Shown here: positions 4,378 to 22,088 of the stretch, piece after piece
How positions within the stretch are numbered: position 1 is the stretch's first letter
Layout: each line of letters opens with the position of its first letter
Origin: an uncultured Campylobacterales bacterium
GTDB lineage: Bacteria > Campylobacterota > Campylobacteria > Campylobacterales > Sulfurimonadaceae
Length of the DNA stretch: 64,000 nt
Assembly: GCA_964014335.1 (NCBI GenBank)
Contig: CAXGZT010000001.1
Coordinates: forward strand, 926-64,925
Direction: 5' to 3'
Notes under the pieces: generated by a model
The model's database searches: none
Told to the model about the DNA's origin: nothing
The model's input: the letters and a program-made list of their open reading frames with translations, nothing else
Program-made: the position numbers and the translations under genes

Positions 4378-5052
4378 TTGCTACTTATGAATGAGGAAGA
4401 GAATAACTGGATCCAAACGCTTTGGGACTGGGCAGATGAACACTCTGTTTCAGATTTGGAGTGGATAGAGCACGACTCTTATTTAAAGGGCGGTTATTTC
4501 AGAGGACTGCCGCGGGAGAAAGAGGCCTTAGTCAATCTGACCGAACTGAACCTTCTTGGTAGTCAACTCCCATACCTACCCCCAGAGATTGGGAATCTAA
4601 AAAATTTAAGAAAGCTCTATCTTTTAGGGAATCAATTATCAGAACTTCCAGCCGAAATAGGCAATCTGATTCATTTGGAAGAGCTTTATGCCGCCGGAAA
4701 CAGCTTAAAGCAGTTGCCGGTGCAAATCGGTTCTCTGAACAGTCTAAAGCTTCTCCTGCTGCAGGAAAATGATCTTACCGAACTTCCCAAAGAGATCGGG
4801 AAATTACAAAAGCTAGACACATTAGAGCTGGGAAAAAACCGGCTTACATCCCTGCCAACAGAGATAGGACAACTACACAATCTGACCAAATTAACACTAT
4901 GGAAGAATGCACTCACATCACTTCCTAAAGAGATAGAAAGCCTTAAAAATTTAAAACTGCTTGATTGCATCTATAATAAGATCGCGTTAACGCAAGATAA
5001 TGTTCAATGGCTAGAAGAGTTGGTTTCCAAAGAGTGTTCCGTCACCCTGTAA
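4378..5052 (+). CDS. Leucine-rich repeat protein
   Basis: About 7 tandem 23-aa LRRs (LxxLPxEIGxLxxLxxLxLxxNxL). The start could be TTG 4378 or ATG 4387. Confidence 0.75.
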   Translation: MLLMNEEENNWIQTLWDWADEHSVSDLEWIEHDSYLKGGYFRGLPREKEALVNLTELNLLGSQLPYLPPEIGNLKNLRKLYLLGNQLSELPAEIGNLIHLEELYAAGNSLKQLPVQIGSLNSLKLLLLQENDLTELPKEIGKLQKLDTLELGKNRLTSLPTEIGQLHNLTKLTLWKNALTSLPKEIESLKNLKLLDCIYNKIALTQDNVQWLEELVSKECSVTL

Positions 5053-5210: not shown

Positions 5211-5495
5211 TTAGCACCCGCAAGATGTTCCACAGCCTGAGTCGGAACTTTCCGTACTGCAACTTCCTGTACTGCAGCTTCCAGCATTGGGGTTCTCAAC
5301 CACCCTAATAGCAAACTCATGATCACCGACTCTTTGTGGAACAAATAGATGTGCTGTACAAAAATCTTCGTTCATAAATTCTGCCGCGATGTTTGTATAG
5401 TTATATGCATCTTGTTGATTTTCAAATGTTTTTTCACTCGCATATTCACTTCTTTTAAAACATGCACATTCGTGTTCCATTTTTACTGTATACAT
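5211..5495 (-). CDS. Small Cys/His protein (CxCFK...FCxxH) with Cys-rich tail; paralog of 8041-8361
   Basis: I place the start at ATG 5495 (MYTVKMEHECACFK), preceded by AGAAGGA, because the paralog starts MYKIEMEKECSCFK. C10, C12, C46 and H49 are conserved. The C-terminus is SCSTGSCSTESSDSGCGTSCGC. Confidence 0.6.
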   Translation of the reverse strand: MYTVKMEHECACFKRSEYASEKTFENQQDAYNYTNIAAEFMNEDFCTAHLFVPQRVGDHEFAIRVVENPNAGSCSTGSCSTESSDSGCGTSCGC

Positions 5496-5675: not shown

Positions 5676-6077
5676 ATGTTAATGAAAATAGGTGACGTAC
5701 AGCAAGTATCAAATGCAATGATGAATATGCTGCATGAAGAAGAGATAGGGATAATCAATGATTTTCATGATGCGGTAATAGCAAGAGATATAGAGAAAAT
5801 TGATGAGCTTTTCAAGGTTGTTTTATTTGATGTAGAGGATCACTTTAGGACTGAAGAGGAGATGATGGAACAGAGTAAGTTTTATGCCATGCAGATGCAT
5901 AAGTCTGAGCATGATACGATGCGAAAAAAGTTATATGACCTGCACGAAAGATGGGAACTGCTTAAAAGTCCAAAAGAGGTGCAAGAATTTCTAGAAGAGG
6001 AGTTTAAACGTTGGATCACTTTACATATATCAAGATGGGATTCGGAAACGGCAATGCATCTTGGTGATACAAATTAA
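5676..6077 (+). CDS. Hemerythrin-like metal-binding protein
   Basis: Bacteriohemerythrin His/Glu pattern (H..E near N-terminus, EDHFRTEEEMM, HKSEHDTM, C-terminal H...D). GAGGAG SD lies 5 nt upstream. Confidence 0.8.
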   Translation: MLMKIGDVQQVSNAMMNMLHEEEIGIINDFHDAVIARDIEKIDELFKVVLFDVEDHFRTEEEMMEQSKFYAMQMHKSEHDTMRKKLYDLHERWELLKSPKEVQEFLEEEFKRWITLHISRWDSETAMHLGDTN

Positions 6078-6174: not shown

Positions 6175-7485
6175 TTAGTTGAGTGCTTGCTCATCATTTT
6201 TGAATTTTTGGAAGTATTTACTAACAATCGTTCCAGTTTGCATATTCTCAATTTTTGAGAAGATAACATAACTAATGATACCGTGGATAACGAGAACAAT
6301 AATTAGTCCTTCAAAGATACCAACCTTAAATACTAACCCGGCACAGACGGTTGCAAGCAGTACAGCATAAGGTCCAAATTCTGCAGTGTGTAACAGACCT
6401 AAGAACATTTTAATACCAACAAACGACATAATAATTGCCAATGCAAAGTACGGTAAATAGTGTAAGTATTGAGAGTTTAATACAAAGAATGTAATTAGTA
6501 CACCAATCACCAATACCGATAGTTTAGTATACGCACCTGCAAGACGGTTTGTTGATGATTTTGCTAATCCATCAAGGTTTGTCATACCACCAAAGAAGCT
6601 GGCACCCATGTTTGATACCCAGATTGATAATAGTGAGTTGTTTGAATTAGATGGACGTTTTAATGGATCGATTTTTTCGATTGCTGCATTACTCATAACT
6701 TGTTCAATAACATCAACCACAGCCAGCATCAACGAGAAGAAGATTGCATAAACCCATAAACCTACTGAATCAAAATCAGGGATTGGCAATGCAAGAGCGA
6801 ACTCAACATCTTTTACATCAAGCATCTTTACATCAACAAATAAAGAAGCCACGATACCATAGACAATCAAAGTAAAATACGGTAACGCTGGTTTTGTATC
6901 TTTAAACATTTTAAATAAAACAAGAAAAAGAATTGTACCGACTATTGACAGTGCAATGATTTGGATACGAGCATCGCTAAAAAACTCTTCACCTACAGCC
7001 ATACCGGCTGGTAACATCCATAAGAAAGGTAAGAATTTAAGAGCAATTTTTAAACCGATACCAGCCAATAAGCCTTCAACCAAGTACGATGGAACAGCCA
7101 TTAAAAGATAGCGTTGCCAGTTAAATTTCCATATGATTGCTTGAAATGTTGCCGTCATAAAAATAATAAAGGCCATGTTTTCCATTCCGAATTTTGCAAC
7201 CCCCATCGCAAGAATTGGGGCTAAACCTGCTGCAATTCCGGGAGCACCTATATAGTTACCTGGACGGAATAGAGCAAATATGAATGCTATGAAGGATGCA
7301 AAAGCAACTGTTGCAAGTCCTACTTGAATTGGATAATCTGACATCAAGGCAATACCAATAGATAATGGGATTGCCATGGTTGCCGTAATGACACCAGCTG
7401 AGAGGTCACGAGTAGCATATTTTGCAACAAATGCTGCAGAGCCGTGATCAACGTTCTGGTTTTGTTTAGTATCTACGTTTTCCAT
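6175..7485 (-). CDS. SulP/SLC26-like anion permease lacking a STAS domain
   Basis: N-terminus RDLSAGVITATMAIPLSIGIALMS resembles the SulP signature, and roughly 11-12 hydrophobic segments follow. At 436 aa the protein ends without a cytoplasmic STAS region. The family call comes from motif recognition only. Confidence 0.55.
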   Translation of the reverse strand: MENVDTKQNQNVDHGSAAFVAKYATRDLSAGVITATMAIPLSIGIALMSDYPIQVGLATVAFASFIAFIFALFRPGNYIGAPGIAAGLAPILAMGVAKFGMENMAFIIFMTATFQAIIWKFNWQRYLLMAVPSYLVEGLLAGIGLKIALKFLPFLWMLPAGMAVGEEFFSDARIQIIALSIVGTILFLVLFKMFKDTKPALPYFTLIVYGIVASLFVDVKMLDVKDVEFALALPIPDFDSVGLWVYAIFFSLMLAVVDVIEQVMSNAAIEKIDPLKRPSNSNNSLLSIWVSNMGASFFGGMTNLDGLAKSSTNRLAGAYTKLSVLVIGVLITFFVLNSQYLHYLPYFALAIIMSFVGIKMFLGLLHTAEFGPYAVLLATVCAGLVFKVGIFEGLIIVLVIHGIISYVIFSKIENMQTGTIVSKYFQKFKNDEQALN

Positions 7486-7963
7486 GTTTTACTACACCTT
7501 TGTAATGTTATTTTATCTTTCACTCAAAAGGCCCGACACTGAGTATCGGAGTGAATGAATTGATTTTAAATTATTCACAAACTTTAGCTTGCGAGTAATT
7601 TTTATCAATGTTAGGAAATTATTCCCAAACAAACTACATAATTGTATATAGAATACTGCCTATAAAATTAAAAAAAAGGACACAAAAATATTTTTTATAT
7701 AAAGAGTTACCATATGTAAACAATTTTTTTTGTATTATCGACTAAATATATCCTATATTTTCCCAGCATTAACCCTCCAAAGGTCCTTATGATGTACCCT
7801 TATAATGCCACTAAAAGTCAAGACACAAATCTAGTTCTCTAAACTCCACCTCATTATGCTACCAGTTCAACACTTTCAAGACAAATATTCATCGGTTTTT
7901 AATAGTTGCGTGCGGAATGAATCTATTAAAATTGTAAAAATGGATCTAAGTCCCGTTTGTGTC

Positions 7964-8040: not shown

Positions 8041-8361
8041 TTAGTTTGAACCACTATCTTTTGGCGGGGCTTGAGTTCCATCAAACCCGATTGTCACCTT
8101 GCTCTTATTTACAAGCTCTCTTGCGTCTTCAATGTCTTCATCATCTTCATCATCTGCGGGTCTTTCGGTAACATGTATTACGATCTTTTCACCATAGTCT
8201 ACCGCTTCAAAGAAGTGTTTCATACAGAATTGCTGATTCATCAAGCACTCTAACACACGCGCTTTATTGATCATATCTTCTCTCGTCTCGAAGGTCATAT
8301 TATTTTCAAAGTCGCTCTTTTTAAAACAACTGCACTCTTTTTCCATCTCTATTTTATACAT
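8041..8361 (-). CDS. Small Cys/His protein (CxCFK...FCxxH) with acidic tail; last gene of dab-like operon
   Basis: AGGA SD lies 7 nt upstream, and the start is 21 nt after the DabA stop. About 35-40% identical over ~68 aa to 5211-5495, with the same conserved C, C, C, H positions. Confidence 0.65.
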   Translation of the reverse strand: MYKIEMEKECSCFKKSDFENNMTFETREDMINKARVLECLMNQQFCMKHFFEAVDYGEKIVIHVTERPADDEDDEDIEDARELVNKSKVTIGFDGTQAPPKDSGSN

Positions 8362-8382
8362 TTTTTTCCTTTAATTTTACGA

Positions 8383-11253
8383 TCACATCTCTTTGATGAC
8401 AATGAACTCGCCATTCTCATATGAGTAGACCTTTTTAGCCTCTCTGTCAATAATGACAGGGCGTATCCATTCGTTTAAAATAAACTCTTTTGCTATCGAG
8501 TTCTCAACGGCTTTTCCCACCTTTTCTAACGGTGCTTCCACGAAGGAAATCAGTCTTACCGGCTCATGGTATGCTTTTCCCTCCAGATGAACCGACTGGG
8601 TTGGCAAACCGATCTTCAAATCACTATAGTTTCCACTAAATACACCCACTTTTGAAACGATGTTATGATACACCTTAGAGCCTGCGCCATACACATGGTT
8701 ATCAACCGTAGAGAAATAATGTTCGAGGTTGATCCACTCGCCTACTACTAAGGGTCCATCGAAAATGCGTGTCAGGATCTCGGCATCATCATTATCAACT
8801 TTCCAGTCATACGAGTGCATAAAAAATCTGTTGTTTAACTCTAAATGCTTTGTATAATCTCTAGGCCCTGCAAATACGCCCATATTACGTGCAAGTCCCC
8901 ACTCCGGTCTAGGCTCGGACCAGTCCATTGCCTTAACCATCATATCATTTTGCGTATGGGCACATGGAAGAGCTTCGGATCTCTCCTGTCTTGACGTTTT
9001 AGAGGCTTCATTAAAATCACGCATGATCTTGAAGAACTTCGGTGCCTCTTCAGCCGTTAATATGTCAGTATCGTAAAACTTGATCTCATCCGTCGTTGTG
9101 ATATGAAGCCCGGGCATAAACTTCGTACTATCCGGGATATCTATACCCTGCTCTTTGATCTTCTCTCTAACCTCTTTGGTATTAGCGATCATACAGAGTG
9201 CCCTTGTATTCGGCAAAGAGATATTACCGCCACAGGCACCACAATCAAGAGCAGACTCAAACGGGTTATTATCCGATATACTACCGTGGCCGATAATCGT
9301 TACAAACTCTGGGAAGTTATCAACCTGACCTATCATTGTCAGGTATTTATATAAATACGAAACCTTCTCGTCAAGTGTAAAGCCTACCATTGCCAGTTTA
9401 TTTCTCTGGTATTCATAATCTGCTGGTGTGATCTGATAAGCAGATTTCAGTTTTTCGATGATCTCGTCTGAAATATCAAGCTTTAGTTCCGTACCAAACA
9501 GAAGGTGGTTTCTTACTGCTTCAATCTCAATCTCAGAGAAATCTTTTTTCGAACTGTCCGCTAAGACAGAGTCAATGATCTTTGTATGAAGTTTTTTGAC
9601 ATAAAACTCAATCTCATAAGATGAGAGCTTGTCAAGCGTATAACTTGTCTTTGGTTTGCTTGGCTTGAACTTTGACAGGAACTTGTTTGTCTTTTGAGGC
9701 AAGAAAGTCTTACCGAATAGATTGATACCAAAAATCCATCCAATCGCCTCAACCATGATATACGGCGTATAAGGATTGTTTTTCAGATCACTCAAAACTT
9801 TTTTAGTCGTTTTATTCATCCCTTTTTTCGAGCTATACTCGTCATGCGATTCAACAGGTATCTCAAACACAACATTGTGCGGTTTAACAATAGCCGGTGC
9901 TAAAAAGAGTTCATGCGCCTTGTCGAACTCAACAAAGTTAATTGGAAGACCAAGAAAACCACCGGCACCATATGTTTTATACGCGCCCATTCCTTCAATA
10001 GATCGACGCATTACCTCAGAACGAACGTCCAAACAAAAGGTAGCCGAAGCAAGAGCCGGTTCCTCCTCCTTTTCTTTAACACCGCTGATCTTTTCAACGT
10101 AAGAACTGATATACGAGTCTTCCAATGATTTAAGCCAGATATACCCCTCTTCCTCTCTTAACTTCTCAATGATTGTCGCAAGTTCGGTTAAAGGAAGATC
10201 GCTTTGCAGAACCTCGTTTGAGTGCTGTATCTGCAAGGCATCAAGATTCAACTCTTTCGTAATATGTTCTGATAAGACCTTAGTCGTCTTTTCATTATCT
10301 TCCAGGGCATCCAGTTCAGCTCCAAAAAGCATGTTTTTGTGCTTAAGAATCTGCAAGATAACATCACTGAGGTTTTCGTTAGCATAGGCTTCAAAAAGCT
10401 CAAAGTTATTGATCCTGTTTTTCTCTACGGCCTTTAGTTCATGATAGAGCCTAACCGCAATATAATCGATCAGTGCAGACGGGTAGTGCTGCTGTGATGC
10501 GTAATCCGGGTCTTCAGAACGATACTTGATGAAACCGGCCCAACCATGCAGTTTAAGAAGATGTGTCAGGAAGTATGACTCTACATCTTTGACACGAAGC
10601 TTTTCCAGGGTCTCTTCCACATAACTCTGAGCATCTTTTTCGTAAGCAAAGTTTTCAAACAATTTAAATGCTTCAAACATACCAAGCTCTCTGTTCGGCA
10701 TATTTAAAGTTGTCTGGTCTTCATCTAAAAAGCGTGAGATAAATTCAATAATATCTTTTTCGACGCTGTCTTTCTTGTCAAGTCCGAAGAGTGCATCATT
10801 GATCTCATACAGGGTCATATGTTTGGTCAATTTATTCAACCAAGCCTTTTCATCATCATAGATCGAGTGCTCTTTTAAATGTGAAAAAAGTGCACTGTCA
10901 ATCTCTTCTTTTTTAGAGATAAACTCTATTCTAAGGCTTCTCCATTGCGGACTTACTTCCATCAGGAACTTCTTGGCAAACTCCATAGGAATCTCAAAGC
11001 CTTTATCAGAAAGAACCTTTTTGATATTCTTCTCAAGTATAGTACTATCGATTTTACCTTCTTTATACAGATCCATATAATAAGAGGAGTCCATATAAAC
11101 CTTACCGCCAAATATGCTTTGAGCCTTACTCAACCCATCTTTAAAATGCAGGTTTTCAAAACCTTTTAAAGGGTTATGGTGAATGAATGATCCGATAGGC
11201 CAGTAATGTGGCACTGTAGCCTTTACAGAGTCTAGTTTTTTTATAATACTCAT
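8383..11253 (-). CDS. dabA: DUF2309 protein, DabA-like subunit of a DIC-accumulating complex
   Basis: 956 aa. FCLDVRSE (Cys 10033-10035, Asp 10027-10029) and GHGSISDNNPFESALDCGACGG (His 9286-9288, Cys 9241-9243; H-x15-C) match the beta-carbonic-anhydrase-like Zn site described for DabA. ATGA overlap with the upstream gene. Confidence 0.85.
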   Translation of the reverse strand: MSIIKKLDSVKATVPHYWPIGSFIHHNPLKGFENLHFKDGLSKAQSIFGGKVYMDSSYYMDLYKEGKIDSTILEKNIKKVLSDKGFEIPMEFAKKFLMEVSPQWRSLRIEFISKKEEIDSALFSHLKEHSIYDDEKAWLNKLTKHMTLYEINDALFGLDKKDSVEKDIIEFISRFLDEDQTTLNMPNRELGMFEAFKLFENFAYEKDAQSYVEETLEKLRVKDVESYFLTHLLKLHGWAGFIKYRSEDPDYASQQHYPSALIDYIAVRLYHELKAVEKNRINNFELFEAYANENLSDVILQILKHKNMLFGAELDALEDNEKTTKVLSEHITKELNLDALQIQHSNEVLQSDLPLTELATIIEKLREEEGYIWLKSLEDSYISSYVEKISGVKEKEEEPALASATFCLDVRSEVMRRSIEGMGAYKTYGAGGFLGLPINFVEFDKAHELFLAPAIVKPHNVVFEIPVESHDEYSSKKGMNKTTKKVLSDLKNNPYTPYIMVEAIGWIFGINLFGKTFLPQKTNKFLSKFKPSKPKTSYTLDKLSSYEIEFYVKKLHTKIIDSVLADSSKKDFSEIEIEAVRNHLLFGTELKLDISDEIIEKLKSAYQITPADYEYQRNKLAMVGFTLDEKVSYLYKYLTMIGQVDNFPEFVTIIGHGSISDNNPFESALDCGACGGNISLPNTRALCMIANTKEVREKIKEQGIDIPDSTKFMPGLHITTTDEIKFYDTDILTAEEAPKFFKIMRDFNEASKTSRQERSEALPCAHTQNDMMVKAMDWSEPRPEWGLARNMGVFAGPRDYTKHLELNNRFFMHSYDWKVDNDDAEILTRIFDGPLVVGEWINLEHYFSTVDNHVYGAGSKVYHNIVSKVGVFSGNYSDLKIGLPTQSVHLEGKAYHEPVRLISFVEAPLEKVGKAVENSIAKEFILNEWIRPVIIDREAKKVYSYENGEFIVIKEM

Positions 11254-11981
11254 AATAGCATCTCCTTAAACCCATTTACGCTTAGTATAAGAAGTAACAC
11301 GACAATCATAAGATGCGTTGCTTTTTCTTTGGATGTCATGTGGACATAATGAATATTTGAGTTTGGTCGACCAAAAAGCGTCTTCTTCATCACTCTCATA
11401 GCAAGGAAAAAATTACCAAAAAACAGCGTTATAATCACAATATACCAAAGCGAACTGGGCTCGCTGTTAAAGATATAGCTTAGAAAATACAGTGAGTTTG
11501 GAAACGGTGGATAAAGCGCCAAAGCAATCAGATAAAATGTCAGATAAGTACCGATATAGGGTCTGACCAGTGTAATCCCCGTTATATGGTGATAATTAGC
11601 ACTTCCATAGTTTTTCTCATAAAACTTCGCGATCAAATAGATACCCATTAATGATACTAGCAATGAGGTACTGTACATCGCACCCTCATTCTCAAAAAGA
11701 ATGAAAAAAGGTGCGTTCACAAAGATAAGGTAATACCCCAGCTTATAGAAGTTTGTTGTCTTGGTCGCTTTATAGATCGAAAATATTGAACTTATAAGTG
11801 CAATCACCACGAAAGAAGCGCTATGCTCATTTGGCATAAACCGTGAAGCCACAACTGCGCCTAAGAGTAAAAGCCCACTGATCAAGAAGATATGTTTACT
11901 CTTCAGCAGTGAAACCTTTTCTAAAAGGATGTAGTATGGCAGCCCGGCAGCTAATATGAACAATGCGATATTAGGTATCAT
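11250..11981 (-). CDS. Polytopic membrane protein, putative third subunit of the dab-like complex
   Basis: 243 aa with about 7-8 hydrophobic segments. ATGA overlaps on both sides imply translational coupling. AMRVMKKTLFGRPN is faintly reminiscent of the C-terminal region of NuoM/N-type antiporter-like subunits. Confidence 0.6.
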   Translation of the reverse strand: MIPNIALFILAAGLPYYILLEKVSLLKSKHIFLISGLLLLGAVVASRFMPNEHSASFVVIALISSIFSIYKATKTTNFYKLGYYLIFVNAPFFILFENEGAMYSTSLLVSLMGIYLIAKFYEKNYGSANYHHITGITLVRPYIGTYLTFYLIALALYPPFPNSLYFLSYIFNSEPSSLWYIVIITLFFGNFFLAMRVMKKTLFGRPNSNIHYVHMTSKEKATHLMIVVLLLILSVNGFKEMLL

Positions 11982-13588
11982 GCTTTATCCTTTTTAAAAA
12001 TTTTGAATAGACTGAAATAGTGTCCCTCTTTTACTAAGAACTTGTAAAACAACCACTTCATGTTATTAGGTTTAAATTCCGCTTTTGGAGTGTCCGTCAA
12101 ATGCTGTTTATACATAAACAACCATCCAATAATCATAATAGCAGCCACTATGATAAGTGATGTCACGATGGTCACATTAAGCGTTGCAGCTTTGTAAAAC
12201 AGCAATGCATCATCTCCATAGATGAAGTGTTCAAGAGCCAATCCGACGAATTCATACGTAAACAAGATAATGATAAACGAACTGACTAAGGCAAATATCA
12301 CCTTAAGTGATTCTGACTTTGACACCTTGAAAAATGACAAGAAAAGCTGGGTACCTGTCAACCAAGCAAATGCCAAAATCACGATTGAAGCATTAAACTC
12401 AAAGAACTCTTCACTCAGCACCATCTTGACACCGATAAAGACAAGTACCGGCAAGATAGTAAAAAACGCCAAATAATTAAAGATCTTTTTGCTATTACTT
12501 TTGATCTTCTCTTCCCAGAAAAGCTCATAAGTAAGACGCTTAGGAAGGTTCGAATCATGTCTCGCCAACTTAATAAGGCCACCCGACTCCAAGAAAAGAG
12601 AGGCTTTAAAGATACCGTGAACCATAAGGTGGTAGATTGCAAGAGAGAAAGCGCCAAGCCCAACTTCCATAATCATGTATCCCATCTGTCCTACTGTTGA
12701 ATATCCAAGAGAACGTTTTATATCAGAGACGACAAGCATAACCAGCGATGCGAAGATAGCGGTGAAGAGGCCGACCACAAAAGCGATGTTAAGTACAGCC
12801 GGTGTCAGTAGTAGCAAGTAGGCGAGCTTATTAAGTAAAATCCCGCCAACATTAACGACTCCCGCATGCATAAGCGCCGAGACAGGCGTAGGAGCCTCAG
12901 ACGTGTATGGCAACCAGATATGAAACGGTGCGATTGCTGACTTCATCATCGCTGCTATCAAGAAAAGCAGTCCTATCATAAAGATTATTGGATTGTCAAC
13001 GGGGTTTTGAGACATGGCCAACCATTTTTCACTCAATATCGCCAGATCAAAACTTCCGAACGTTTTATAAGTCAATACAACTGCAAATATAAATACGAGA
13101 TCAGCCCCTTTATGAACAACCATCGTCCACTTGGCATTTTTAACGGCAGAGTTTGAACCTACGTTGAATGAAACAAGAAGGTATAGACTAATACTCATCA
13201 ACTGCCAGGCTAAAGCAAGTACGATAAGGTTATTACTCATAACCAACAGGTAAATTGCCGAGAAGATAAAGTTTAAAAGAATAAAGAATCTTCGATAACC
13301 CGGTTCGTCCCACATATATTTAGTCGCATATTTACGAATAACCAACCCTAAAATAGCGACATAAGGAACCAATATCGCCGACAGCTCATTGTAGATCACT
13401 AAACCGTCAAAGCCAATGATCGGAGTACCGTTGCTGATAACATGGTATGTTCCATACAGCCCAAGCAGTGCGACCATGCTTGAGAGCATTATACTGATTT
13501 TCGGAATAAGCTCTTTTTTGCTCACAAAAAATAGAATGAACGCTATAACGATCGGAATGCTTGGAATAAGCAATATTATTTTTTCCAC
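11978..13588 (-). CDS. dabB: NuoL/MnhA-like proton-conducting membrane subunit (PF00361-type), DabB-like
   Basis: 536 aa and highly hydrophobic. Antiporter-like motifs are present (WQLMSISLYLLV, PFHIWLPYTSEAPTPVSALMHAGVVNVGG, SLGYSTVGQMGYM). GTG start with AGGAG 6 nt upstream. Confidence 0.85.
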   Translation of the reverse strand: MEKIILLIPSIPIVIAFILFFVSKKELIPKISIMLSSMVALLGLYGTYHVISNGTPIIGFDGLVIYNELSAILVPYVAILGLVIRKYATKYMWDEPGYRRFFILLNFIFSAIYLLVMSNNLIVLALAWQLMSISLYLLVSFNVGSNSAVKNAKWTMVVHKGADLVFIFAVVLTYKTFGSFDLAILSEKWLAMSQNPVDNPIIFMIGLLFLIAAMMKSAIAPFHIWLPYTSEAPTPVSALMHAGVVNVGGILLNKLAYLLLLTPAVLNIAFVVGLFTAIFASLVMLVVSDIKRSLGYSTVGQMGYMIMEVGLGAFSLAIYHLMVHGIFKASLFLESGGLIKLARHDSNLPKRLTYELFWEEKIKSNSKKIFNYLAFFTILPVLVFIGVKMVLSEEFFEFNASIVILAFAWLTGTQLFLSFFKVSKSESLKVIFALVSSFIIILFTYEFVGLALEHFIYGDDALLFYKAATLNVTIVTSLIIVAAIMIIGWLFMYKQHLTDTPKAEFKPNNMKWLFYKFLVKEGHYFSLFKIFKKDKA

Positions 13589-13641
13589 TAAAAACTCCTA
13601 TAATCCACTAAAAATTCCTATCTACTAAAAATTCCTATCTA
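13586..13641 (-). repeat. Three imperfect tandem repeats (17-20 nt) across the dabB start/leader
   Basis: On the minus strand: TAGATAGGAATTTTTAG / TAGATAGGAATTTTTAGTG / GATTATAGGAGTTTTTAGTG. The last copy supplies the SD and the GTG start of dabB. Confidence 0.7.
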
Positions 13642-14764: not shown

Positions 14765-14989
14765 ATGTATTATGTAGCAAAAGTTAATTCTGACATGTGT
14801 GCTGAGTACAAATGTAACACGTGTACACTATATTGTCCAGAAGCCAACACGCTAATGTTCGATAAAGATAGAAATACATCTTGGGTAGATGAAGATAGAT
14901 GTAAAGGGTGTGCACTTTGTGTGTACGTATGTACTGATATGCTTGATCGTAACTGTATTACGATGGAAATGGCTGGTCACGAAGACTAA
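14765..14989 (+). CDS. OFOR delta subunit (2x[4Fe-4S]), copy 2
   Basis: 74 aa, same Cys motifs as copy 1. GGAG SD upstream. First gene of operon 2. Confidence 0.9.
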   Translation: MYYVAKVNSDMCAEYKCNTCTLYCPEANTLMFDKDRNTSWVDEDRCKGCALCVYVCTDMLDRNCITMEMAGHED

Positions 14990-15047
14990 TAAACTATAAT
15001 TTATATTTAATTCAAGTTATAGTGTAGAAAAATTTAGAGGAGAACTT

Positions 15048-15617
15048 ATGGCAAATCAAGGTCCTGCGTATTATTCACCGTATCCTGCGGCTACGTATGA
15101 AGGTGTAATCACACCTCCAGAAGGAAAAGCACTTTTATTAGAAGATGTGGTAGATGAAGAAATTGCAATGAGAGAGATTGCAAAACAGATGTTGACAAGA
15201 GAAAATGCGACTATTTTCCCTGGTCCGCAAGTATTATACGGTTTCAACGAAGAAGCGAAGAAGAAAGCTACACTTATCAAAGAGATGGCAGAAGTTCTTA
15301 ATGCTAAGATGATCCCAATGTATGACTACAGACCAAAATATCCAAAGATTGATGCTGAAGTAGAGATCAATCCGAATCATCCAAACTTAACAATTTGGCA
15401 CAACGATATTAAAGCAGCAATCTTTATCGGTGTTCACTGTCATTATGCAAATGTTGCATTAAAGATCGTAAGAGCAGAGACTGACTGTTATACAATTGCA
15501 ATTTGTGGTTTGTCAGGGCATGAAGATGCTATGGCTACATTAAGAGACCAGCATTCTTCAGAGCTTGAGAAATTCATCAAAATAGCTAAAGAAGTTAAAG
15601 CTGAGCTTGGTAAATAG
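15048..15617 (+). CDS. Fifth (epsilon-like) subunit of a five-subunit OFOR
   Basis: 189 aa with a GAGGAG SD, sitting tightly between the delta and alpha genes. Size and position fit the extra subunit of Hydrogenobacter-type five-subunit Por/For enzymes. The assignment rests on context, not on a recognised motif. Confidence 0.55.
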   Translation: MANQGPAYYSPYPAATYEGVITPPEGKALLLEDVVDEEIAMREIAKQMLTRENATIFPGPQVLYGFNEEAKKKATLIKEMAEVLNAKMIPMYDYRPKYPKIDAEVEINPNHPNLTIWHNDIKAAIFIGVHCHYANVALKIVRAETDCYTIAICGLSGHEDAMATLRDQHSSELEKFIKIAKEVKAELGK

Positions 15618-15630
15618 GTAGGAGATAATA

Positions 15631-16830
15631 ATGAGTAAAATTACTGATATGACAGAAACACACAACTGGTCTGGACAGAAATTAGTTTCTACAGACCACC
15701 TGCTTTTCGAAGCTCCAAGAGAAAAGCACTTCATGACTGGTTCTGAAGTTTTAAAAGAAGCGGTAAAAAGATGTACGGTTGATGCGTCTGTATCATACCC
15801 TATTACACCACAGTCTGAAGCGGCTCACCTTATCGGTGAACTATGGGCTGAAGGTTATGTAGGTACATACTTCCGTGGTGAGAATGAGTTTGGTGTTATG
15901 TCTGAGGTTGCTGGTTGTGCGATGGCCGGTGCTAGAACGATCACAACGACTTCTGGTCCGGGTACACTGCGTGCAATGGAAAACTTTGCACAATGGTCTG
16001 GTACAAGAATCCCTTGTCAACTTATCCTTATGGCTCGTGGTATCAACTCACCACTAACTATTCAGCCGGACAACTTGGAAGTTTCTTACATGCTAGAAAC
16101 TGGCTGTCAAATCTGGTACGCTGAAAACGTGCAAGAACTATTCGACATGTCAATCGCAGCATTCACAGTAGCTGAAAAGCCGGATGTTCATGTTCCGATT
16201 ATTACAGTTGTAGATGGTTTCTTTGTATCTCACACACGTGAAGCGGTTATGCTTCCGGCTGATGATATTGCATTACACCCATACAACCCATATGCGGCTC
16301 CGTTACCTCCGATTGACTCTGAGACTCCTCCGGGACGTTTCCTAAGAGATCCATTCGTAATGAAGTCTAACTATATCTCTTATGCGACACACGCTTCATG
16401 GCAGTTTGAAGTAAGATCTGCAGTTGAGCGTTCACGTCCATATGCTGAGCATTACCTAAAAGGTCTTGTTCATGTTACTGGTGATGAAGATGCTGAGATT
16501 GCATTTGTTACTTGCGGTACTGCATCTAATCAAGCAAAAGAAGCACAAAGAGATTTAGCTAAGCAGGGTGTCAAGTCTAAAGTTATTAAACTTAGAACTA
16601 TCAGACCATTCCCAGAAAAAGAACTTCTTGCAGCACTTGACGGTGTTAAGCATGTTTTCGTACCGGAATTCAACGTTGTTGGTTGGTTAGAGAAAGAAGT
16701 TAAAACAGCACTTTACAAGAAACATGACGCTGAAATAGTTGGCGGTCCAAGAGTTGCTGGTGGTATGAGCTTACCTTCTGAAGCAATTCTTAAAGAAGTA
16801 TTTGAACACATTAACGTAGAAGGAGCATAA
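15631..16830 (+). CDS. 2-oxoacid:ferredoxin oxidoreductase alpha subunit, copy 2
   Basis: 399 aa. YPITPQSE, TTSGPG, IQPDN and IRPFP motifs. Confidence 0.92.
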   Translation: MSKITDMTETHNWSGQKLVSTDHLLFEAPREKHFMTGSEVLKEAVKRCTVDASVSYPITPQSEAAHLIGELWAEGYVGTYFRGENEFGVMSEVAGCAMAGARTITTTSGPGTLRAMENFAQWSGTRIPCQLILMARGINSPLTIQPDNLEVSYMLETGCQIWYAENVQELFDMSIAAFTVAEKPDVHVPIITVVDGFFVSHTREAVMLPADDIALHPYNPYAAPLPPIDSETPPGRFLRDPFVMKSNYISYATHASWQFEVRSAVERSRPYAEHYLKGLVHVTGDEDAEIAFVTCGTASNQAKEAQRDLAKQGVKSKVIKLRTIRPFPEKELLAALDGVKHVFVPEFNVVGWLEKEVKTALYKKHDAEIVGGPRVAGGMSLPSEAILKEVFEHINVEGA

Positions 16831-16831
16831 G

Positions 16832-17701
16832 ATGGCAATTGATATTTATAAAATCAACCCTGAGTTTAGAGACATTATGCCTAAAGAGATCATTGATCTT
16901 GAGGAAAATGCAACATGGGCTCAAAACCAAGAGAAACCTCGTGGTATTAAAGAGCTTCCAGAAACAAAAGAGATTCTTGAAGAGCACTCACTATGTGCTG
17001 GTTGTCCGGAAGCTGCAGCTTTACGTTATGTACTTTCTGCACTGCCTAAACCGGAAGAGACAATCATCGTTAACTCAACGGGTTGTACGTCTTTAATGTT
17101 CCCGCACATCGCACTACATACTGTACACTCACTATTTGGTAACCAAAATGCAGTTGCATCTGGTATCAAAAGAGTTCTTGACTGGAGATTTCCAGATACT
17201 GAGAAAGATGTTGTCGTTCTAGCGGGTGACGGTGCTACAGTTGATATCGGTCTTGACTATACACTTCAATCTTTCTTCCGTCAGGAAAAGATCACGACGA
17301 TCTGTTTTGATAATGAAGTATATGCAAATACTGGTGGTCAAGAGTCCGGTGCTACGGCAAAGGGTCAAGTATTTAAAATGGCTCCAACTGGTAAAAAGTT
17401 TGAAAAAGTACCTATGTGGGAACTTGCTACGACTTCTGGCTGTCACTACTCTATCAACATGACTGCATCTGCTCCAAAAGCGGTTGCTAAAGCAGTTAGA
17501 GAAGCGATCCTGGTTGCAAGAGAAATCGGACCGACATTCATCAATCTTTATACTCCATGTATCCTTGAGATTGGACTAAGTGCAAACGAAGGTCTTGGTG
17601 AGATGAAAGATCAAGATAAAGGTAGATTTACAGCATACAAGCATATTTCTCCAGAAGCAGAAGAGTTCTTGAAAAAATGTAAAGCGGAAGGAAAATTATA
17701 A
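16832..17701 (+). CDS. 2-oxoacid:ferredoxin oxidoreductase beta (TPP) subunit, copy 2
   Basis: GDGATVDIG...NEVYANTGGQ and a CAGC Cys motif. Confidence 0.92.
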   Translation: MAIDIYKINPEFRDIMPKEIIDLEENATWAQNQEKPRGIKELPETKEILEEHSLCAGCPEAAALRYVLSALPKPEETIIVNSTGCTSLMFPHIALHTVHSLFGNQNAVASGIKRVLDWRFPDTEKDVVVLAGDGATVDIGLDYTLQSFFRQEKITTICFDNEVYANTGGQESGATAKGQVFKMAPTGKKFEKVPMWELATTSGCHYSINMTASAPKAVAKAVREAILVAREIGPTFINLYTPCILEIGLSANEGLGEMKDQDKGRFTAYKHISPEAEEFLKKCKAEGKL

Positions 17702-18402
17702 TGGCAAAAGATTCAATCAAAGTAAGACTTCCGGGTCTAGGTGGTCAGGGTGCGGTAACTGCTGCACACATCGCAGCAACAGCAGCAGATACTGATGGTT
17801 ACTATGCTGTATCTAACCCATTCTTTGGTGCAGAAAAGCGTATGGCTCCGTCTGAGTCTTATGTAAGACTCGGTACTGTGCCTATTTACGATAGAGGGGA
17901 AGTTATTTACCCTGATATCGTTATGATTTTCCACCCACAAGTTATTACTATGGGTAAATCATACACTATGCCTTTTTATGCAGGTATTAAAGAAAATGGT
18001 CTGGTTATCATCAACTCTGACAAAGACCTTTTAACTGATACGGATAGAAAGATCCTTGATGACCTAAACGTTAAAGTACTTACAAAAGACTTTACTCAGT
18101 TCGCTATCGATAAAGCTGGTACAGAACTTGCAACAAACATGGCTATGCTAGGTGCACTATTTGGTGCTCTTGGTACAGTTTCTAAGCCTGCTATTGAAGA
18201 AGGTATCAAAGACCGTTTCCTTAAGAAATATACAGCTTCAGGTGGTACGGCTACACTTGACTCGGTTATTGAGAAAAAATTCAAGAAGAAACAGGAACTT
18301 ATCCAGAAAAACCTTGACACTGCATCTGCAGCATTTGATCTAACTGCTGCATGGGCAAAAGAAGTTGGTCTAGAGCAAATTCTAGAGCCTGCTAAGAAGT
18401 AA
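17701..18402 (+). CDS. 2-oxoacid:ferredoxin oxidoreductase gamma subunit, copy 2
   Basis: GLGGQGAVT and AGTELATNMAMLG. TAATG overlap with beta. Confidence 0.9.
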   Translation: MAKDSIKVRLPGLGGQGAVTAAHIAATAADTDGYYAVSNPFFGAEKRMAPSESYVRLGTVPIYDRGEVIYPDIVMIFHPQVITMGKSYTMPFYAGIKENGLVIINSDKDLLTDTDRKILDDLNVKVLTKDFTQFAIDKAGTELATNMAMLGALFGALGTVSKPAIEEGIKDRFLKKYTASGGTATLDSVIEKKFKKKQELIQKNLDTASAAFDLTAAWAKEVGLEQILEPAKK

Positions 18403-18411
18403 TACTTCATA

Positions 18412-18440
18412 TTACAACTGTGCCTTTGGTACAGTTGTAA
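18412..18440 (+). terminator. Hairpin after OFOR operon 2
   Basis: Perfect 10-bp stem TTACAACTGT-N9-ACAGTTGTAA, 10 nt after the gamma stop. Confidence 0.5.
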
Positions 18441-18554
18441 CACCCCCTTGATTCATTAAATTTCTTTCATAAACCTTTGCATTTAACACAAGAGATTATG
18501 AAATAAATTTATTGCAAACACCCACTTACACCAAGTAATTTATAAGGCATAGAC

Positions 18555-19526
18555 ATGATTCAATCATTTATCATTACAGGATTTTTAGGCGTCGGAAAGA
18601 CTACAATGCTCACCAATACGGTCAAAGAACATTTTTCTGACAAGAAAGTCGCTATTATTGTAAACGAGTTTGGTGATATCGGCGTAGATGGTAATATACT
18701 CAGCAATGTATACAGTGAAGTACTTGAGATATCAGAAGGGTGTATCTGTTGTCAACTGGCCCAAGAGTTTGAAAGCGGTGTCATAGAGATCATGAATAAA
18801 TATAATCCTGAGATAATCTTTGTAGAGACCTCAGGTGCATCTGAACCTTTTCCCATCTTTTTATCCTTGCAAAATCTCGGAATCTCCGTTGAGGGCGTTA
18901 TTTGTGTTGTTGACTCCAAAAACCTTGATTCCTATAAGGACAACTCCACGGCCAAGTATCAGATTGGCGGCTCAAACATACTCGTGTTAAACAAGACCGA
19001 TCTCGTGAGCGATAATGAATTAGAAGCTGTAAAGAGAGATGTCATTGCAATCAAAGAAGAATACAATATTAAAAACACTCTTACGGGTCAGACTATATTT
19101 AATAACTATGTCGTAAACAGTGCCGAGCAGGGCCTCGTCGCCAAAGAAGTTTTTGAAGGTGTTTACAAAGTTGATGAGATTGTTGGGTTAGCAAAAGATT
19201 ATGAACGCCTTGATCACACGATAAAAGACTCGATCACCCAGAAAGTTGCTTACCTCAAAGAGGACATTGAGTTTATGGATGTGGATGAAGTCTTAAAAAG
19301 CCTTCCCAAAAGCATCTACCGGGTAAAAGGCGTCGTACGGGTAAAAGATGTGCCAAATCCCATCGTGATAAACTACTCATTCGGCAATGTCTCATTTGAA
19401 GAGTTAGATGAGTATACTGAACCGTCCATTATGATATTTATCGGGGCAGCAATAGAGAGTGACGTGAATCAGTTAAATAAAAAGTTTGATTTTTTAAACG
19501 TGCCTCAATTTAAAATAAGCAGATAG
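18555..19526 (+). CDS. COG0523 (CobW/ZigA/YeiR-type) metallochaperone GTPase
   Basis: P-loop GFLGVGKTT plus the hallmark CxCC motif (GCICCQL). Confidence 0.85.
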   Translation: MIQSFIITGFLGVGKTTMLTNTVKEHFSDKKVAIIVNEFGDIGVDGNILSNVYSEVLEISEGCICCQLAQEFESGVIEIMNKYNPEIIFVETSGASEPFPIFLSLQNLGISVEGVICVVDSKNLDSYKDNSTAKYQIGGSNILVLNKTDLVSDNELEAVKRDVIAIKEEYNIKNTLTGQTIFNNYVVNSAEQGLVAKEVFEGVYKVDEIVGLAKDYERLDHTIKDSITQKVAYLKEDIEFMDVDEVLKSLPKSIYRVKGVVRVKDVPNPIVINYSFGNVSFEELDEYTEPSIMIFIGAAIESDVNQLNKKFDFLNVPQFKISR

Positions 19527-20656: not shown

Positions 20657-20673
20657 AGAGTGTAAATCACTCT
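20657..20673 (-). terminator. Hairpin overlapping the MCP stop codon
   Basis: AGAGTG-N5-CACTCT, followed on the minus strand by T-rich sequence. Confidence 0.45.
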
Positions 20674-22088
20674 ACAACCATTGCATCCAGTACACTAAAC
20701 AGCTCATCGCTTGCTCTTTCCATCTCTTCGAAATTTGCTATAACGATCGCCGGGTTCCCGCCATCAAAAGTCGTGCCCTCTTCCACAAAATGCATATTAG
20801 CATGCAGTTTCTCATGCACAGTTTTATGCGGTACGTTAATCTGCCTAAAGGCCTGAGTATGGCTGAATCTCTTAGCGGCTTCGGAATGCATCCACTCTCC
20901 GAGCCTGCATGTTTCAGCACTCTCAAAACTCTGGCCTTTTTTCTCATCCAAGGTGGTGGAATACGCAAAAGATTTCAAAATAATATGATCTATCTTAGCC
21001 AAGGTTACGAAAAGGCGGTTTTGAATCAGGTTGGCCGATTTCGCCGACGTTTTCGCTGTTTCATAAAAACCGGAAAAGGTCTCTTCAAAATTTTGGATCT
21101 CGTCGCTTGAACTCGTTGCCAACTCCGAGACATGTACAGAATTGCTCTGTATCTCGCTTGACTCTTGCTGCAGAGTCGAGATCGTTATCTCAATCTCCTG
21201 AGTTGCCTTTTGCGTACGTTCTGCAAGTTTTCTCACCTCATCGGCAACGACGGCAAATCCCCGTCCATGTTCTCCGGCACGTGCAGCTTCTATCGCAGCA
21301 TTTAGGGCTAAAAGGTTTGTCTGGTCGGCAATATCTTTGATGAGTCCCACTATTTCAGAAATCTCCTGTGAACGGCTGTGCAGGCTTATGACACCCTCAT
21401 GAGACGCACCGATAAGTTCATTAAGCTCTGAAAGCTTTTTACTTACAGAATAAACACTCTCCCTGCTCTTTTCCGCTTCATCCGCCGTGATCTGGGCATT
21501 CTCTACTATCCCTTCGGATTCCTCTTCGGCATTATGAACATCATCTTGGATCAATTTTAAACCGCCGGCAAAACCGCCGCCCAGATTATTAAATTTTGCG
21601 GCCACTTCACCGCGGACCTTTGTCCTATGACCCAGGGAGATCGCCTCGATCGAGTCATTTAGCTGTATACATGTTTCTCTCAGCATTCCATGCAAACCAC
21701 CCGGAAAGGTGCGTCGGAAAGTCTTCCCGTCTGACGCCATGGCGATAGAGGTAGATACGTCACGCATAAAGGCTTCCAACTGATCGAGAACATCATTAAC
21801 GGCCCAGGCCAACTCTTCTTGCCCCTTGTCTTCCGAAGAGATATGCGTAATCCTCTGCTCAAGGTCTCCTCTTGCCGTCGCATTAAGTACCCTGCGAATC
21901 TCGTCTCGAAGACGTACACTCATCTTAGACGTATTCGATTGCACAAACACAGAAGAGACAACGACCGCTAAACCGATGGCGGATATAATATACTCACCGT
22001 TAACAAGAGTATAAACCGTGACAAGCAGCAGCCCTGTCAGAAGCAATAGGCTCTGTTTATTCTTGAATAGTGATGATAAGTTCGTCAT
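20667..22088 (-). CDS. Methyl-accepting chemotaxis protein with C-terminal CZB (chemoreceptor zinc-binding) domain
   Basis: Two N-terminal TM segments and a HAMP-like region. MCP signalling core [41 protein letters not shown]-like KIDHIILK...CRLGEWMH...H..H at the C-terminus. Confidence 0.88.

Follow-up and report, generated by a model that had tools for sequence, protein, structure and literature searches.

The dab locus of the window (the whole 64,000-nucleotide stretch of DNA analysed here, from an uncultured bacterium of the Sulfurimonadaceae) very probably encodes a predicted energy-coupled CO2-uptake complex of the DAB1 type, i.e., a three-subunit DAC, with the genes in the order dabB-dabC-dabA. 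The locus is a real, divergent example of a three-subunit DAB1 pump that has already been described, and it does not overturn the current understanding of DAB pumps. The proposal of the earlier note on this DNA, a DabAB/DAC-type pump with a third coupled membrane subunit, is borne out by the Pfam matches, the alignment of the Zn site, the ATGA overlaps and the homology of the middle protein to DabC. One previously unreported feature of the locus is the Cys-rich proteins encoded downstream of dabA.

The finding is otherwise largely ordinary, because three-subunit DAB1/DAC complexes have been published and the extra protein is the known DabC subunit. The genes Hneap_0907-0909 of Halothiobacillus neapolitanus (DabA1, DabC and DabB1, respectively) were named a three-subunit DAC (PMC13144422), and the DAB1 heterotrimer of Thermocrinis albus was resolved by cryo-EM at 2.13 Å in 2026, in a study that also demonstrated the need for DabC in two species in vivo (bioRxiv 10.64898/2026.05.01.722082). 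The three-subunit versions mentioned in the earlier note thus exist in the literature, and the novelty that it implied for the third subunit does not hold. The role of the short membrane protein, which it called undefined, has already been proposed to be structural or allosteric, without proton conduction, which makes that remark outdated in part. T. albus and H. neapolitanus are the only species for which the heterotrimer and the requirement for DabC have been published. The present locus extends the structurally characterised three-subunit DAB1 pump to the rTCA-cycle Campylobacterota, of which Sulfurimonas and Sulfurovum dominate sulfidic and hydrothermal-vent habitats.

Operon structure and the DabA-DabB core

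All four open reading frames listed in the earlier note are present as described on the minus strand. The gene dabB (11978..13588; 536 aa, GTG start) encodes a predicted NuoL/NdhF-like proton-conducting membrane subunit, dabC (11250..11981; 243 aa) a polytopic membrane subunit of a divergent Campylobacterota subfamily, and dabA (8383..11253; 956 aa) a predicted cytoplasmic, beta-carbonic-anhydrase-like catalytic subunit. The region originally noted ends at 13641, slightly past the start of the longest dabB reading frame (13588). The fourth gene (8041..8361) encodes an orphan Cys-rich protein of 106 aa and starts 21 nt downstream of dabA. Two ATGA overlaps indicative of translational coupling, of the dabB stop with the dabC start (11981-11978) and of the dabC stop with the dabA start (11253-11250), were read directly from the minus-strand sequence at the places given earlier.

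The -4 overlap between dabC and dabA was found in many other DAB1 loci. The arrangement B(~560)-C(~250)-A(~1040), in which stop and start codons overlap, recurs in the loci of H. neapolitanus, Acidithiobacillus, Guyparkeria and Aquificaceae, and the presence of a small transmembrane protein between dabB and dabA agrees with at least 16 canonical DAB1 loci. The H. neapolitanus DAB1 locus (L084) is unfused, as in the window, and its middle membrane protein of ~250 aa overlaps dabA, whereas in T. albus DabC is fused to DabB (DabBC). The hosts also differ, H. neapolitanus being a CBB/carboxysome organism and the window host an rTCA campylobacterotan. Promoter-like sites showed no enrichment in comparison with shuffled sequence.

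The 956-aa protein matched PF10070 (DabA/DUF2309) over profile positions 2-747 of 747 (E = 1.6e-208, 695 bits), in agreement with the DUF2309 identity first assigned to it. In the phmmer alignment with the H. neapolitanus DabA2 structure 9rd0_A (E = 5e-76), residues C407, D409, H656 and C671 fall exactly on C351, D353, H524 and C539 of that chain, and R411 is aligned as well. All four ligands of the beta-carbonic-anhydrase-type Zn site are therefore kept on proper alignment, and the Halothiobacillus ligand numbering given in the earlier note was correct. The ligands are also conserved across a 15-sequence DabA1 alignment. The previously quoted motifs FCLDVR (406-411), GHGS (655-658) and LDCGACGG are all present.

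The window protein carries both DabA1 motifs for coupling to DabB, NNPFESALDCGACGG (662-676) and DWSEPRPEWGL (777-787), which align, in the forms NNP[Y/F]ESALDCGACGG and DWxxxRPEWGL, with those of 14 other DabA1 sequences. The DabA1-type motif NNPYESALDCGACGG is strictly conserved in 50 DabA1 sequences; the window motif differs from it by one Y-to-F change, which is also present in Nitrospirota DabA. Residue L787 occupies the position of the bicarbonate-destabilising Leu. The three functional parts of the T. albus DAB1 are common to both systems: its DabA residues C449/D451/R453/H694/C709/L825 correspond to C407/D409/R411/H656/C671/L787 of the window, and both systems have NNPxESALDCGACGG, DWxxxRPEWGL and the H-x3-H-x3-K arrangement in TM11 of DabB. 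Apart from the Y-to-F change, the window DabA differs from that of T. albus in its lid motif, which reads GAGGFLG (429-435) instead of GI(A/G)GFFG (GIAGFFG in characterised DabA1), and in having A452-P453 where canonical DabA1 carries the lid Cys-Pro. Because the lid/gate motif departs in this way, the gating details of the window DabA may differ from those of characterised DabA1. The window protein is also ~80 aa shorter than T. albus DabA; a missing domain was ruled out, as the difference consists only of scattered deletions of 6-11 residues.

The two-subunit DAB2/DAC systems (H. neapolitanus DabA2B2, PDB 9rd0; Hydrogenovibrio Tcr_0853/0854) have the same DabA-DabB core and Zn ligands; however, they are without DabC, whereas the window DabA has the DabA1-type motif and a DabC partner.

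The 536-aa DabB matched PF00361 (E = 1.3e-42), as had been expected of it, and PF00662. Its best sequence matches in the PDB were NdhF, NuoL and DabB2 (9rd0_B, E = 1.3e-39), and its top NCBIfam matches were NuoL models, below the model cutoffs. The proton-pathway motifs include K216 (KSAIAPFHIWLP), H241 (ALMHA) and H320/H324/K328 (HLMVHGIFK), of which H241 probably corresponds to H229 of T. albus, as the numbering of the two proteins is offset by a constant 12 residues. At TM5, the window protein has Q129 (WQLM). The replacement of the TM5 Glu of NuoL by this residue was considered as an oddity and rejected, as either WH or WQ is usual for DabBs here: WH occurs in H. neapolitanus DAB1 and WQxxS, like in the window, in Nitrospirota DabB.

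Proposed mechanism and role of the pump

According to the structures and genetics of T. albus DAB1 and H. neapolitanus DAB2, CO2 would diffuse into the cell, and protons passing through DabB along the proton-motive force would cause conformational changes that gate the buried active site of DabA. The gated DabA would hydrate CO2 to HCO3- in one direction only, since access to its active site is proposed to be controlled by the proton-driven gating, and bicarbonate would build up in the cytoplasm. DabC, itself without proton conduction, would be indispensable to DabB and DabA as a structural or allosteric partner. The cyanobacterial NDH-1MS/MS' complexes (NdhD3/F3-CupA and NdhD4/F4-CupB) follow a similar principle, combining an antiporter-like NuoL/M pair with Zn-dependent vectorial CO2 hydration. 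However, the Cup proteins are unrelated to DabA, and these complexes are redox-coupled within a complete NDH-1, whereas DAB is a stand-alone system driven by the proton-motive force.

The dab locus is linked to a five-gene oxoacid:ferredoxin oxidoreductase cluster, an association that several Sulfurimonas and Sulfurovum genomes have kept, and the pump would most likely supply inorganic carbon to these carboxylating enzymes encoded next door. The occurrence of the system in an rTCA autotroph, pointed out earlier as noteworthy, is not new: DAC genes beside 2-oxoacid:ferredoxin oxidoreductase genes have already been surveyed in rTCA Campylobacterota (PMC13147460; PMC10880623).

The same genes might instead serve general bicarbonate supply or pH/ion homeostasis, in the manner of MpsAB in heterotrophs, and not autotrophic carbon concentration, with DabC and the small proteins as dispensable accessories. 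A homeostatic role would suit the absence of a carboxysome and of RubisCO here, and also the substrate of the rTCA carboxylases POR and OGOR, which is CO2 and not HCO3-. Likewise, DAB/Mps systems are common in heterotrophs (bioRxiv 10.64898/2026.05.01.722082). However, such a role is improbable in view of the conserved linkage described above, which the published survey reads as support for carboxylase supply (PMC13147460), and of DabC, which is strongly constrained here and essential in the two tested systems.

The 243-aa protein as a divergent DabC

The middle protein, of 243 aa, is a strongly divergent DabC homologue of the DAB1 class. It had no family match in Pfam or NCBIfam and is ~16% identical to canonical DabC, including that of H. 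neapolitanus, to which it is nevertheless homologous. The canonical set was composed of open reading frames taken from genome loci, including those of H. neapolitanus and Aquificaceae (L109 and L119). In the hhalign comparison, the 243-aa family matched canonical DabC with a probability of 95.4% (E = 1.8e-8) over 211 columns, nearly full length and collinear, while the reversed and block-shuffled controls gave E ≥ 0.1. Reciprocally, the canonical-DabC HMM found the 243-aa protein with E = 6.9e-10. When 1.84 billion proteins were searched in depth with the profile of the 243-aa family, only 32 representative clusters were returned, without a direct match to canonical or fused DabBC proteins; the matches expected in the C-terminal third of ~750-aa fused DabBC proteins were not found. 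The homology therefore rests on profile-profile comparison, the HMM search of a small database, fold and synteny.

The AF2 model of the protein (pLDDT 77, pTM 0.80) had only ND4/NuoM of complex I as its top Foldseek matches (TMq 0.62-0.78), and the predicted fold is that of the NuoL-proximal half of NuoM. Direct hhalign comparison of the family with E. coli NuoM, NuoN and NuoL was not significant (E = 0.009 to 0.2); the link to NuoM became significant only transitively, via the long DabC of Nitrospirota. In the Nitrospirota three-gene DAB (e.g., L013, L033 and L052), the B-middle-A order is the same as in the window, and the middle protein of ~437 aa is homologous to both the window DabC (E = 5e-8) and canonical DabC (E = 9e-18). 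Unlike the short window protein, it has nearly the full length of NuoM and is clearly NuoM-like (E = 1.3e-14). In the transitive profile alignment, the proton-pathway residues H322, H348 and E407 of NuoM are replaced by the hydrophobic, invariant F78, L107 and F166 in the 243-aa family. The T. albus DabC is likewise a NuoM-like half without proton-pathway residues. Set beside the Nitrospirota form and NuoM, the short DabC suggests an origin of this subunit from a NuoM-like one that became truncated and degenerate. The family has 57 invariant columns across 18 sequences, with identity down to 61%, a pattern indicative of strong purifying selection.

It is highly improbable that the protein is not DabC but an unrelated, lineage-specific membrane protein inserted between dabB and dabA, and so a truly new third subunit. 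The missing Pfam and NCBIfam matches, the low identity and the 32 clusters of the deep search, none of them an annotated or fused DabBC, would be expected of such a protein. However, they are set against a nearly full-length profile match well clear of its controls and confirmed in the reciprocal search, a size, gene position and -4 overlap with dabA equal to those of canonical DabC, a NuoM-like half fold common to both, and the fact that both families lead to the long DabC of Nitrospirota, and from there to NuoM. That the PF00361 protein and its 243-aa neighbour are instead what is left of a cation antiporter module of the Mrp or complex-I-like type, without a carbon function, is extremely improbable: PF00361 proteins are generic antiporter-like subunits and the best NCBIfam matches are NuoL models below cutoff, but both genes are coupled in translation to dabA, whose full-length product keeps the Zn site intact and has the motifs for contact with DabB, no further nuo or mrp genes adjoin the operon, and the middle protein has no proton-pathway residues. 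The identification as DabC gives an annotation handle on a Campylobacterota "hypothetical protein" family for which there is no Pfam model.

Cys-rich proteins downstream of dabA

The small Cys/His protein mentioned in the earlier note as part of the operon is real and conserved, but it is not among the known DAB components. Its CxC...CxxH core consists of C10, C12, C46 and H49 and is followed by an acidic tail. No Pfam family, including PF00543, matched it. Its homologues formed 249 clusters, and every cluster with a named source belongs to Campylobacterota and is annotated as "hypothetical". In 9/9 Campylobacterota loci, and also in L121, L126 and L127, the gene directly after dabA encodes a homologue; ~110 non-Campylobacterota DAB1 loci are without one. 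We infer the membership of the protein in the DAB system from this conserved position only. Its AF2 model has a b-b-a-b-b core (pLDDT ~80), with no significant match among PDB folds (best E = 0.39).

After dabA, Campylobacterota loci have one or two orphan CxC...CxxH proteins, while in other phyla a P-II gene occupies that slot. The P-II gene, a companion of most DAB1 operons that follows dabA in the T. albus and Nitrospirota systems, is absent at the window locus. The 106-aa protein was rejected as a divergent P-II, given the absence of PF00543 and an hhalign probability of 0.1% against the DAB-linked P-II family; by fold, too, no P-II chain was present among the 50 PDB matches listed.

We tentatively consider the small CxC...CxxH pair a possible lineage-specific accessory module of DAB1 in the P-II slot and, secondarily, the Campylobacterota DabA, DabB and DabC a possible DAB1 subclass of their own, in which the lid/gate is altered (GAGGFLG, A-P); both ideas are more doubtful than the assignment of the pump itself. 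One possibility is that the proteins replace P-II as a regulator that senses metals or redox state; another is that they deliver or buffer Zn for the active site of DabA. Their presence in the place of P-II points to a potentially different regulation or maturation of the pump in Campylobacterota.

The 106-aa gene is followed by a 555-nt gap with a terminator-like hairpin, which separates the dab genes from a SulP-type gene (6175..7485; 436 aa, PF00916, 81 bits, without a STAS domain). The SulP protein, considered as a putative BicA-like bicarbonate transporter (SulP-C/D of Scott et al.), had no relative in the PDB at E ≤ 1e-3, and the gene was rejected as a conserved part of the system, as it is absent from all of the related loci examined. 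No known RNA (Rfam) was matched in the gap, and a degraded second Cys-rich paralogue within it was likewise rejected, as tblastn gave no match there. The real copy was located by tblastn on the minus strand at 5211..5495 (~94 aa if translated from the Met at 5495, in a reading frame that reaches 5534 upstream). It has no Pfam match, and in the alignment of both paralogues it has the same CxC...CxxH core with a Cys/Ser/Gly-rich tail. It is 58% identical to the second paralogue of a Sulfurimonas locus (L080; E = 2e-31). In the relatives, the second paralogue directly follows the first, whereas in the window the two are separated by a SulP/hemerythrin insertion.

Gene content and residue conservation of the dab locus

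The four minus-strand ORFs claimed by the earlier note are present exactly as it described them: dabB (13588..11978, 536 aa), dabC (11981..11250, 243 aa), dabA (11253..8383, 956 aa) and a Cys-rich ORF (8361..8041, 106 aa), and both claimed ATGA stop/start overlaps were seen by direct reading. As that note expected, the Pfam analysis assigned the 956-aa protein to PF10070 (DabA; 695 bits, whole model covered) and the 536-aa protein to PF00361, here together with PF00662. The 243-aa and 106-aa proteins have no match in Pfam or NCBIfam.

Among solved structures, the 956-aa protein has a single relative, H. neapolitanus DabA2 (9rd0_A, E=5e-76). The residue-by-residue alignment placed C407, D409, R411, H656 and C671 of the window DabA on C351, D353, R355, H524 and C539 of 9rd0_A, so the Zn-ligand numbering and spacing given in the earlier note are correct. 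Moreover, both DAB1 DabA–DabB coupling motifs were found, NNPFESALDCGACGG at 662-676 and DWSEPRPEWGL at 777-787, and L787 corresponds to the Leu that destabilises bicarbonate. The Campylobacterota DabAs form a recognisable subgroup, with the lid motif GAGGFLG as against GIAGFFG and, in most of them, A-P in the lid as against C-P in canonical DabA1; they are ~80 aa shorter through small deletions dispersed along the sequence.

In DabB, K216, H241 and H320/H324/K328 are kept; by a constant 12-residue offset, H241 and H320/H324/K328 would correspond to H229 and H308/H312/K316 of T. albus. Having Gln in place of the NuoL TM5 Glu is not an oddity of the window protein but normal for DabBs, which carry WH in Proteobacteria and Aquificota and WQ in Nitrospirota and Campylobacterota.

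Identity and distribution of the 243-aa subunit

DabC as an additional subunit has been treated in two structural papers from 2026 and, before them, in genetic work, and the three-subunit versions mentioned in the earlier note are published. According to Lo et al. (PMC13144422), H. neapolitanus has, besides a DAB2 of two subunits, a DAC of three (DAB1) that is encoded by Hneap_0907 (DabA1), 0909 (DabB1) and 0908 (a small transmembrane protein, hypothetical). Phillips et al. (bioRxiv 10.64898/2026.05.01.722082) presented the T. albus DAB1 structure at 2.13 Å, a DabA/DabB/DabC heterotrimer; by their account DabC sets DAB1 operons apart, has no Pfam family and bears hydrophobic residues at the NuoM proton-pathway positions. 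Their Supplementary Table 6 gives 50 DabA1 operons with DabC, which in Aquificota is fused to DabB; among the entries examined, none is from Campylobacterota.

The word-index homologues of the 243-aa protein all come from Sulfurimonas, Sulfuricurvum or Campylobacterales and are labelled "hypothetical proteins"; they also put the window in a Sulfurimonas-like organism. The family profile (n=18 members, 57 invariant columns) matched only 32 clusters among 1.84 billion representatives, the distant ones being proteins of 380-460 aa whose C-terminal half is what matches and to which Pfam gives a weak PF00361. The top Foldseek matches of the AF2 model (pLDDT 77, pTM 0.80) were all complex I ND4/NuoM, with a query-normalised TM-score of 0.62-0.78.

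The profile–profile analysis linked the window family with canonical DabC (probability 95.4%, E=1.8e-8; 211 collinear columns, 16% identity) and with the long form of Nitrospirota (94.8%, E=5e-8). Canonical DabC likewise matched the long form (99%, E=9e-18), which in turn matched E. coli NuoM (98.3%, E=1.3e-14) ahead of NuoN (66.9%, E=5e-5) and NuoL (4.8%, E=8e-3). All controls (the reversed alignment, eight block-shuffled alignments, SulP and DabB) gave E>=0.1, which supports the match with canonical DabC, and the reciprocal canonical-DabC HMM recovered the window protein at E=6.9e-10. Mapped through the long-DabC profile chain, NuoM H322/H348/E407 fall on F78/L107/F166, which are invariant or nearly so across the 243-aa family and whose equivalents in canonical and long DabC are hydrophobic too. 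Because of this homology, the NuoM-like fold and the hydrophobic replacements in the proton pathway, the 243-aa protein, judged by its sequence, is a DabC homologue with every testable defining feature of DabC, and the claim of a DabAB/DAC-type pump with a third membrane subunit is supported.

To collect canonical DabC sequences, the genome collection was scanned for the DabA1 motif NNP[Y/F]ESALDCGACGG in degenerate back-translated form, which gave 120 loci. The arrangement B(~560)-C(~250)-A(~1040), in which stop and start codons overlap, is that of Aquificaceae (L109, L119) and of Proteobacteria, among them H. neapolitanus L084 (middle gene of 250 aa), A. ferrianus L008 and Guyparkeria L097; fused versions occur in L012 and L042. 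The Sulfurimonas and Sulfurovum operons, B(~540)-C(244-247)-A(~957), are identical to that of the window, and those of Nitrospirota are B-C'(~437)-A. The long DabC (~435-439 aa; L013, L017, L026, L033, L034, L040, L045, L052, L053, L075, L088, L091) has L/L/F at NuoM K234/K265/E407 though it is clearly NuoM-like, which suggests that the short DabC arose through truncation of a degenerate NuoM-like subunit. Two motif matches per 8-kb block were seen in a Sulfurovaceae MAG (L029), where a partial dabA copy is followed by a frame-shifted full copy that could reflect tandem duplication or assembly error, and in Nitrosomonas eutropha (L025), whose two dabA genes lie ~3.8 kb apart.

Cys-rich proteins in the post-dabA position

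A P-II family gene (PF00543, E=7e-20; 108-125 aa), which we take to be of the carboxysome-associated CPII type, lies directly 3' of dabA in 61 non-Campylobacterota DAB1 loci from Proteobacteria, Nitrospirota, Nitrospinota and Aquificota (e.g., L013, L014, L062, L064, L097), often overlapping the dabA stop by 1 nt. The Campylobacterota loci have no P-II gene after dabA; the 106-aa ORF family fills this slot in all nine that reach past dabA (9/9), and also in loci L121, L126 and L127. It was not found in ~110 non-Campylobacterota DAB1 loci, it has no Pfam match, and kinship with P-II was ruled out (hhalign probability 0.1%). Usually there are two tandem paralogues, the first with an acidic and the second with a Cys/Gly-rich tail, sharing a CxC...CxxH signature (C10, C12, C46, H49). 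The predicted b-b-a-b-b core gave no significant PDB fold match. Going by their position, they may have a role in the DAB system; that they bind metal through a Cys3His site, or serve in regulation or Zn handling, is speculative.

In relatives the second paralogue directly follows the first, but in the window it is displaced by ~2.5 kb (5495..5211, minus strand, with the tail ...SCSTGSCSTESSDSGCGTSCGC; the ORF reaches 5534). Between them lie a 436-aa STAS-less SulP-family permease (7485..6175, minus strand; PF00916), for which no PDB relative reached E<=1e-3, and, between SulP and the second paralogue, a bacteriohemerythrin (5676..6077). Neither is a conserved neighbour; none of the related loci examined has them, which gives the pair the look of an insertion. 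The SulP protein could be a bicarbonate transporter. A terminator-like hairpin (7532-7550, minus strand) stands 47 nt upstream of its start codon, and the 555-nt gap ending there contains neither an ORF nor a match to Rfam. The second paralogue adjoins a gene for a leucine-rich-repeat protein of 224 aa (4378-5052, plus strand), a kind of protein that is unusual in bacteria.

Proposed mechanism and upstream genes

The Zn site and the proton-pathway residues are intact, the coupling motifs are present, and DabC is a NuoM half without proton-pathway residues. Going by published structures and genetics, the system very probably works as a whole as follows: the proton-motive force would drive proton flow through DabB, this flow would remodel access to the buried DabA site, CO2 would there be hydrated one-way to cytoplasmic bicarbonate, and DabC would be required as a structural or allosteric subunit. 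The window encodes a divergent representative of the already described DAB1 (DabBCA) class, and its novelty is therefore modest; what may be new beyond that lies in the Cys-rich orphan proteins in place of P-II and the distinct lid/gate signature of the Campylobacterota subclass.

Upstream of dabB and divergent from it lies a five-gene 2-oxoacid:ferredoxin oxidoreductase cluster (14765-18402, plus strand) encoding ferredoxin-type delta, CO_dh-type, alpha, beta and gamma subunits (Fer4, CO_dh-type, POR_N, TPP_enzyme_C, POR). A CobW/COG0523-type GTPase, of a family that includes Zn chaperones, comes next (together 14765-19526, plus strand). The linkage with dab is also present in related Sulfurimonas and Sulfurovum contigs, and is seen in L121 and L126. 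The occurrence in an rTCA autotroph, considered noteworthy in the earlier note, is not new, since Scott and colleagues had reported DAC genes in Sulfurimonadaceae and, for Campylobacterota, that DIC transporters are commonly encoded together with oxoacid:ferredoxin oxidoreductases (PMC13147460; PMC10880623). The minus strand at 20667-22088 encodes a chemoreceptor that bears a zinc-binding CZB domain.
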